From the sequence record OR958571.1: DNA of 64,000 nucleotides. One strand, 5' to 3'. The stretch is from Escherichia phage 121/2022-2B. Both the position numbers and the translations under genes were made by a program. This document shows positions 35,805 to 36,471 of this stretch, piece by piece. Numbering within the stretch: the stretch's first letter is position 1; every line of letters starts with the position of its first letter. The notes beneath the pieces were generated by a model, which was not told the origin of the DNA, did no database searches, and was given only the letters and a program-made list of their open reading frames with translations.

Positions 35805-36022
35805 GTAACCTTTAAGCAGTATTCTTCTACATGCTGTTTACGACCTTTCTTATCAATAAAGGTATATTCAACGAATGTTCCAATGTAGTCTTTATCTACG
35901 TCATGTGGACTATTAATTGGACATTTAGTACGGCAAATGCGTTCCCATTGACGAATAATTACTGCCTTATTCTTTGGGTCATACGGATGTGGATAATGTA
36001 TATTCATAATAACGGTTCCCAA
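35795..36022 (-). CDS. hypothetical small protein
   Basis: ORF track 75 aa. Confidence 0.4.
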   Translation of the reverse strand: MGTVIMNIHYPHPYDPKNKAVIIRQWERICRTKCPINSPHDVDKDYIGTFVEYTFIDKKGRKQHVEEYCLKVTWL

Positions 36023-36471
36023 TCAACAATCACAATTTCTAATTTAGAGGAATATGCATCTAAAATCCCCTCAATAATATCCCAGTTCCCTTTACCTATG
36101 CCTGCACCAATCCTAGGCATATAGATTGTAGGTTTAATCAGTTTATTTTCACCAAACTCATTTAATTCTAACATACAATTCATTAAAGCGGAATACTCAA
36201 AATTTGGCCCTGGTTGAAATTGAGTATAAAGGTTGAAGCAATACGCTTTATGAGTCCTAAAGTATTTTTCATAGACTGAGTAAGAACCGAGTTTAGTTAC
36301 ATCACCCCATTCAGTCTGTAATTTATCAGCTTCCAAAATTTTAGGGAAAGCTTTGGTTAATTGACCCGCTACGCCTGAACCCATAGTATGAAAACAATTA
36401 CATCCATGCGCAATATTTTTACCTTCAGCGAAAAGGGCGACAATATCGCCCTTGATATATTTTACAATCAT
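36004..36471 (-). CDS. macro-domain-like protein (putative ADP-ribose binding/processing)
   Basis: ORF track 155 aa; GDIV...IAHGCNCFHTMGSGVAGQL and MPRIGAGIGKGNW resemble the macro-domain motifs. Confidence 0.45.
   Translation of the reverse strand: MIVKYIKGDIVALFAEGKNIAHGCNCFHTMGSGVAGQLTKAFPKILEADKLQTEWGDVTKLGSYSVYEKYFRTHKAYCFNLYTQFQPGPNFEYSALMNCMLELNEFGENKLIKPTIYMPRIGAGIGKGNWDIIEGILDAYSSKLEIVIVDWEPLL

Follow-up and report, generated by a model that had tools for sequence, protein, structure and literature searches.

A T4-like phage gene, tk.4 (adfM), encodes a free-standing ALC1-like macrodomain with a predicted Gln-type active site

Introduction

DarTG systems stop phages by ADP-ribosylation of phage DNA. 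When a transposon library of phage T4 was challenged on DarTG2-expressing Escherichia coli, the outcome was "a single significant hit, tk.4"; T4 became sensitive to DarTG2 when tk.4 was cleanly knocked out, and the authors gave the gene the new name adfM, for anti-DarT factor Macrodomain (HIDEN-SEQ, bioRxiv 10.1101/2025.11.20.689424, a preprint of November 2025 that is not peer reviewed). From earlier work, in which T4 stayed resistant to DarTG2 after the loss of both adfA and adfN, a further factor had been predicted. [quoted passage not shown] Tk.4 protein has also been detected in T2-infected cells (bioRxiv 10.64898/2026.06.19.733364). That study lists a RIL-seq contact between the sRNA ArcZ and tk.4 mRNA and mislabels T2 tk.4 as "putative thymidine kinase." The paper on CmdTAC (mRNA ADP-ribosylation, active against T-even phages) contains nothing on tk.4 and has macrodomains in its reference list only.

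The name AdfM was given independently to gp104 of phage PhiKZ, which in vitro clears DNA of the ADP-ribose added by DarT2, with reduced activity in the N23A mutant, and which is imported into the phage nucleus; neither T4 nor tk.4 comes up in that paper (Cell Rep 2026, PMC13309987). Among cellular proteins, the ALC1-like macrodomain SCO6735 of Streptomyces coelicolor, 54% identical to BT1257, lacks the catalytic Lys and Asp, yet it was the fastest of three enzymes tested on thymidine-ADP-ribosylated (dT-ADPr) DNA, was inactive on guanosine-ADPr, and rescued E. coli from DarT (PMC9411070). Its Q85A and Q85E mutants are dead, and in the proposed mechanism Gln85 holds the distal ribose while the backbone carbonyl of Val25 positions a water; the same study ties a longer "mobile loop" to high DNA activity and found DarT to be inhibited in vitro by the inactive proteins SCO6735 Q85A, DarG K80A, and TARG1 K84A, most strongly by SCO6735 (PMC9411070). 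Rescue from DarT is abolished in TARG1 K84A and DarG K80A. Here we compare these systems with a macrodomain gene carried by Escherichia phage 121/2022-2B.

Results

The window analyzed here is a 64,000-nt stretch of Escherichia phage 121/2022-2B (OR958571.1), and the gene under study is a minus-strand ORF of 155 codons (Table 1). A megablast search with positions 34600-37900 matched 732 phage records, nearly all of them T4-like Tequatroviruses, the best being Escherichia phage vB_EcoM_G4498 (99.5%), and on these matches the window is assigned to Tequatrovirus. In the matching GenBank records the ORF is variously labeled "macro domain protein," "phosphatase," "Poa1p-like family protein," and "tk.4," and the T4 reference has at the same position tk.4 (NP_049723, "phosphatase; contains A1pp phosphatase motif"), where it sits between the genes regB, vs.1, and vs and the group of tk.3, tk.2, tk.1, and tk. 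The window protein and T4 Tk.4 are of equal length and identical at 154/155 residues (99.4%), differing at one non-conserved position (A139 in the window, T139 in T4). The tk.3-tk.4-vs DNA is 98.4% identical, and vs upstream, tk.3 downstream, and both ATGA overlaps are common to the two phages (T4 annotation, NC_000866: tk.3, 60713-60925; tk.4, 60922-61389). By protein identity and gene order, the ORF is the ortholog of T4 tk.4. It has been described before, as T4 tk.4/adfM, and a macrodomain annotation for it is present in many GenBank records. Elsewhere in the T4 RefSeq record (NC_000866), the product of tk.3 (60713-60925) is mislabeled "Tk.2," and mobD.4 (58352-58534) has been given the product name [quoted passage not shown] through a collision of gene names.

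Table 1. Positions of tk.4, its sequence motifs, and neighboring genes in the window
Feature	Position	Strand	Basis and remarks
tk.4/adfM CDS, 155 aa + TGA stop, ATG start	36004..36471	minus	ORF list; single-domain macrodomain protein
Residues 7-11, KGDIV (GDIV = 8-11)	36439..36453	minus	N-terminal strand-end motif; G8 and D9 near-invariant; aligns with TARG1 "KGDLF"
Residues 20-38, IAHGCNCFHTMGSGVAGQL	36358..36414	minus	Predicted first ADP-ribose-binding loop; G23, N25, G33, A35 invariant
Residues 80-84, NLYTQ	36220..36234	minus	End of central beta-strand; Y82 and Q84 invariant, T83 in >=90% of 70 homologs
Residues 118-130, MPRIGAGIGKGNW	36082..36120	minus	Predicted second, diphosphate-binding Gly-rich loop; P119, I121, G122, G124 invariant; G126 at the TARG1 Asp125 position
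vs stop/tk.4 start ATGA overlap	36468..36471	minus	Read from sequence and ORF ends; T4 arranged alike
tk.4 stop/tk.3 start ATGA overlap	36004..36007	minus	Read from sequence
regB	37361-37822	minus	Identity confirmed
vs.1	36808-37353	minus	Signal-peptide-like N-terminus and SLT transglycosylase domain
vs	36468-36815	minus	Signal-peptide-like N-terminus; without Pfam match; historical name valyl-tRNA synthetase modifier
tk.3	35795-36007	minus	DUF7202
Cys-rich ORF, 70 aa, 8 Cys	35592-35804	minus	Phage_zn_bind PF23895, phage zinc-binding domain; no counterpart at T4 locus
58-aa ORF	35419-35595	minus	No counterpart at T4 locus
tk	34646-35227	minus	ORF list and T4 gene order

A sequence-only reading of the window had described this ORF, with its motifs, at the coordinates in Table 1, and these hold; it did not give the strand. 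It had also correctly located the gene in the tk-regB interval, where the minus-strand order is regB, vs.1, vs, tk.4, tk.3, and then tk. Its description of the neighbors as small Cys-rich and secreted proteins of unknown function stands in its first half, which fits the zinc-binding 8-Cys ORF and the signal-peptide-like Vs and Vs.1, and fails in its second for Vs.1, which has an SLT transglycosylase domain, and for Vs, which has a historical name. In the HIDEN-SEQ study, vs was the T4 gene most strongly depleted in M9-glucose versus LB (bioRxiv 10.1101/2025.11.20.689424). The ATGA overlap between vs and tk.4 suggests translational coupling inside one early-region transcription unit. Scanning the region for promoters and terminators returned 12 sites against 14.4 expected from shuffled sequence, that is, no excess. 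The best sigma-70-like match lies upstream of regB (37850-37878, minus; TTTACT, a 17-nt spacer, and a TG-extended TATAAT; 10/12 matches), and the packed or overlapping regB-vs.1-vs-tk.4 ORFs could be transcribed from this predicted promoter.

Between tk and tk.3, the window differs from T4. This variable cassette (35228-35793, minus) matches T4 only at 35246-35421, with 69% DNA identity and 52% amino acid identity to tk.2, and T4 tk.1 is absent from it. On the other side, about 1.7 kb upstream of tk.4, a vs.4 homolog (38160-38462, minus) has an Acb2/Tad1 hairpin domain (PF24729, E = 4.8e-16), a Pfam match that would make it a member of the anti-CBASS cyclic-nucleotide sponge family. Taken together with tk.4, this match suggests that the early region carries at least two counter-defense genes.

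Profile searches, structure prediction, and structure comparison agree on a macrodomain fold. The protein matches Pfam Macro (PF01661) at 27.7 bits (E = 2.8e-6; curated gathering cut-off, 22 bits) over profile positions 2-113 of 118, and PHROG 335 at E = 3e-65. With phmmer against PDB sequences, the query alone found BT1257 (1.3e-9), yeast Poa1p (2.5e-6), Thermus aquaticus DarG (3.4e-4), SCO6735 (3.8e-4), and TARG1 (5.5e-4), and a profile of 70 homologs, which are 34-97% identical to the query, matched PDB entries over a range of 2e-18 to 1e-11, including BT1257 (2.3e-18), TARG1 (8e-16), SCO6735 (1.3e-14), Poa1p (6e-14), and DarG (3e-13). An AlphaFold prediction from the single sequence was unusable (pLDDT 37.7) and was superseded by an AF2 model based on the 70-sequence alignment (pLDDT 95.2, pTM 0.91). 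The protein is predicted to have the three-layer alpha/beta/alpha architecture of macrodomains, and a Foldseek search with the AF2 model against the PDB put TARG1, Poa1p, BT1257, and DarG on top (E of 6e-10 to 4e-7). By these profile scores, the likeness to macrodomains far exceeds what chance would give, and the macro fold suggested by the sequence-only reading is borne out by the Pfam match, the PDB profile matches, the model, and the Foldseek check that it had proposed. In both structure and sequence, Tk.4 is nearer to ALC1-like members than to the MacroD, PARG, macroH2A, and viral Mac1 classes; of the comparators named beforehand, DarG belongs to this class, and MacroD and Af1521 belong to another and are the wrong ones to use. 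Alignments and model together indicate that Tk.4 consists of a single, free-standing macrodomain and that it belongs to the ALC1-like class (TARG1/DarG/SCO6735).

The motifs expected to contact ADP-ribose, which the sequence-only reading had likened to those of macrodomains, are all present by alignment and are conserved both within the family and in macrodomain relatives. Eleven residues are invariant among the 70 homologs: G23, N25, G33, A35, D49, Y82, Q84, P119, I121, G122, and G124. The Asp at the end of the N-terminal strand contacts the adenine of ADP-ribose in macrodomains, and in Tk.4 this position falls in the KGDIV motif. The two Gly-rich loops predicted to hold the ADP-ribose diphosphate contain G31/G33 and P119/G122/G124, which are conserved in the family and with TARG1, DarG, and SCO6735. 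In the first of them, H22-G23-C24-N25 aligns with H-V25-C-N of SCO6735 (hhalign and multiple alignments), and N25 aligns with N23 of PhiKZ AdfM (multiple alignment).

The position of the catalytic lysine is occupied by glutamine. Gln84 corresponds to Lys84 of TARG1, Lys80 of DarG, and Gln85 of SCO6735 (profile alignment and hhalign). In the alignment of the Tk.4 profile with TARG1, "lYtQ" falls on "LITK" and "GIGKGNW" on "GLDRLQW," and because these segments are placed together, the K84/D125 dyad of TARG1 reads as Q84/G126 in Tk.4. An hhalign comparison of the family with SCO6735 sets NLYTQ84 on NMIGQ85 (probability 98.6), and one with T. aquaticus DarG sets T83-Q84 on T79-K80 (probability 97.9). 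The glutamine is present in all 70 homologs, so that none has the catalytic Lys after the conserved Thr that defines the Lys-type subgroup, and it is also found in distant phage homologs (Felix O1, a Pakpunavirus, Vibrio phage Ceto, a Vequintavirus, and a Slopekvirus); in the multiple alignment, TARG1, DarG, and PhiKZ gp104 have Lys at this position. With Gln in place of Lys and no equivalent of Asp125, Tk.4 shares the defining residues of the Gln-type subgroup, and we read its active site as Gln-type (SCO6735-like) and not as the Lys-type of DarG. That Gln84 would lie beside the distal ribose is predicted from alignments rather than geometry, and by analogy with SCO6735 we infer that it is essential in Tk.4. 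The extended mobile loop of the Gln-type subgroup, which exceeds that of TARG1 or DarG by about 5 residues, is absent: BT1257 and SCO6735 have an insertion of 5-6 residues just after the Gln relative to the Tk.4 profile.

Resemblance to the cellular Gln-type proteins is accordingly partial. SCO6735 (PDB 5E3B) and Bacteroides BT1257 (PDB 2FG1/2AFC) are Gln-type ALC1-like macrodomains like Tk.4, but their identity to it is only about 21-30%, their mobile loop is longer, and the lysines studied in SCO6735, K34 and K89, align with S32 and the G88 region of Tk.4 and are not shared by it. They are also cellular proteins, whereas Tk.4 is a phage protein. Human TARG1/OARD1 differs from Tk.4 in the catalytic dyad described above, and yeast Poa1p, an ADPr-1''-phosphatase, has neither Lys nor Gln at the Gln84 position (the roles of the Poa1p-type comparison residues H23 and S30 are taken from PDB entry titles only).

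DarG is recovered by the annotation databases, at scores far from those of the full-length antitoxin. The only NCBIfam match, to the DarG equivalog NF048014, reaches 30.4 bits over model positions 2-147 of 338, below the equivalog cut-off of 250 bits for a full-length DarG, and DarG is likewise the only PADLOC match (1.2e-9). Compared with the DarG macrodomain (T. aquaticus 5M31/5M3E; M. tuberculosis 5M3I), Tk.4 has Gln84 in place of the catalytic Lys80, and the C-terminal DarT-binding domain of DarG has no counterpart in the 155-aa phage protein. No darT gene was found among the flanks of tk.4, where the neighbors are vs, vs.1, and regB in one direction and tk.3, small ORFs, and tk in the opposite one. 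On these comparisons, Tk.4 is not a DarG-type enzyme. Two Tk.4 homologs, at 1927-2397 and 5001-5480 of two contigs, have been deposited as bacterial MAG proteins (Bacilli, Culicoidibacterales). No DarT lies near either homolog, and the contigs are rich in genes of T4-like phage type (Rnl1, a Dda-like helicase, PNKP, dCMP deaminase, and a T4 spanin); phage contigs have probably been placed in bacterial MAGs by the binning. The two contigs and the tk.4 locus gave evidence neither for nor against descent of Tk.4 from a DarG antitoxin.

PhiKZ gp104 is like Tk.4 in being a phage-encoded stand-alone macrodomain that counters DarTG2, bears the same name, and has the conserved Asn (N23 in gp104, N25 in Tk.4). 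It differs in being truly DarG-like (E = 9e-25 to M. tuberculosis DarG) and in keeping the Lys in a "PTK" motif where Tk.4 has Gln; in vitro biochemistry and import into the phage nucleus are features of gp104. BLASTP aligned only 23 residues of the two proteins (21 bits). Since gp104 is DarG-like with Lys and can barely be aligned to Tk.4, the two proteins called AdfM belong to different subfamilies.

About 2,750 phage genome records, from many genera, contain a Tk.4-type macrodomain. The Felix O1 homolog (NC_005282, 7130-7915) is annotated as a protein of 261 aa, comprising the macrodomain and an extra C-terminal part. In Vibrio phage Ceto, the homolog (105675-106151) directly follows a gene annotated as "ribose-phosphate pyrophosphokinase," a neighbor suggestive of a link to NAD/ADP-ribose salvage.

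Discussion

The counter-defense role proposed in the sequence-only reading, in which DarT-type DNA ADP-ribosylation was named first, agrees with the published knockout, since T4 tk.4, whose product is 99.4% identical to the window protein, protects T4 from DarTG2. Most probably, Tk.4 is an early-expressed Gln-type ALC1-like macrodomain that hydrolyzes ADP-ribose off DarT2-modified thymidines in phage single-stranded DNA and thereby restores replication. In such a pathway, tk.4 would be expressed from the T4 early-gene strand, and host DarT2 would ADP-ribosylate thymidines in single-stranded phage DNA, blocking replication. Tk.4 would then bind ADP-ribose via its two Gly-rich loops and hydrolyze the thymidine-ribose bond, returning the DNA to its unmodified state and acting in effect as an "orphan antitoxin." Its chemistry is most likely Gln-type and water-mediated as in SCO6735, with the Gln holding the distal ribose and the backbone carbonyl after the conserved His positioning the water, and is probably not Lys-dependent as in DarG and TARG1. 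Hydrolysis of dT-ADPr on single-stranded DNA has been shown for DarG, TARG1, SCO6735 (PMC9411070 for SCO6735), and PhiKZ gp104 (PMC13309987), and by analogy we infer that Tk.4 is itself catalytically active on such DNA. Two features seen in the alignments count against hydrolysis, namely that Tk.4 lacks both the Lys indispensable in DarG and TARG1 and the longer mobile loop. The missing Lys first looked like a problem for the hydrolase model, because it is essential in TARG1 and DarG; SCO6735, which has the same Lys-to-Gln change and is a very active dT-ADPr hydrolase, resolved this, and we no longer regard the change as an unexplained anomaly.

Other accounts of the phenotype and of the macrodomain signature have to be weighed against hydrolysis of DarT2 marks. 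Because SCO6735 that has lost catalysis can still bind and inhibit DarT, the phenotype alone is no proof of hydrolysis, and Tk.4 might neutralize DarTG2 mainly without catalysis, either by binding and inhibiting the DarT2 toxin or by shielding ADP-ribosylated DNA. The dead DarG K80A and TARG1 K84A proteins inhibit DarT in vitro just as SCO6735 Q85A does, the DarG Lys is absent from Tk.4, and the evidence from T4 is genetic, all of which would suit a binder. We nevertheless think this quite improbable. None of the 70 homologs, at identities of 34-97%, departs from G23, N25, Q84, and the Gly loops, and the Gln is kept in distant phage genera; such invariance of the catalytic site is the pattern of an enzyme, unlike that of a toxin binder, which must track diverse DarT2 surfaces. 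The lack of the DarG C-terminal DarT-binding domain also argues against a binding role.

It is somewhat easier to imagine, and still unlikely, that the primary substrate is another ADP-ribose conjugate or metabolite and that activity against DarTG2 is one of several. Candidates would be ADP-ribose-1''-phosphate, O-acetyl-ADP-ribose (A1pp/Poa1p), and Glu/Asp-linked protein ADP-ribosylation, including the T4 Alt/ModA/ModB marks. The dual specificity of SCO6735 and TARG1 and the breadth of the family, with its roughly 2,750 phage records, speak for such a substrate; so do the "A1pp phosphatase" and Poa1p homology labels, except that the "phosphatase" label is itself a homology transfer. Against it, the only known experimental phenotype of tk.4 is DarTG2-specific, a single hit in the screen, and to our knowledge T4 RNA repair (Pnkp and Rnl1) does not generate ADP-ribose-1''-phosphate. 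The sequence-only reading had also offered hydrolysis of ADP-ribose-derived immune signals of the Thoeris type (e.g., gcADPR or His-ADPR). Macrodomains can act on soluble ADPr derivatives, such a role has been proposed in the literature for phage macrodomains generally, and the Acb2/Tad1-hairpin sponge gene 1.7 kb away points to anti-signaling functions in the region. No support for this role of Tk.4 was found, however, in the analyses and papers examined here, and we regard it as highly improbable.

Returning to the hydrolase model, a wider version of it can be put forward tentatively. Possibly, the Tk.4-type proteins are not captured DarGs, and Gln-type ALC1-like hydrolases whose mobile loop is short make up a lineage of their own in phages. 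With the Lys-independent, water-mediated chemistry proposed for SCO6735, they would act on both thymidine-ADP-ribosylated DNA and ADP-ribosylated proteins, as SCO6735 and TARG1 do. If so, Tk.4 would have roles beyond DarTG2, such as editing of the T4 Alt/ModA/ModB marks, and T4 Tk.4 and PhiKZ gp104 would be convergent solutions from different subfamilies.

Recovery of a known counter-defense gene from raw sequence is a sanity check and not a discovery. What is added here is mechanistic: a predicted Gln-type active site and a subfamily distinct from that of the PhiKZ namesake. The first of these means that a catalytic-dead mutant would best be designed at Q84 or N25 and not at a lysine, and the results also matter for how the two AdfM proteins are named and for the "orphan antitoxin" account of their evolution. 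The resistance of T-even phages to DarTG would be explained by phage enzymes that take the mark off again.
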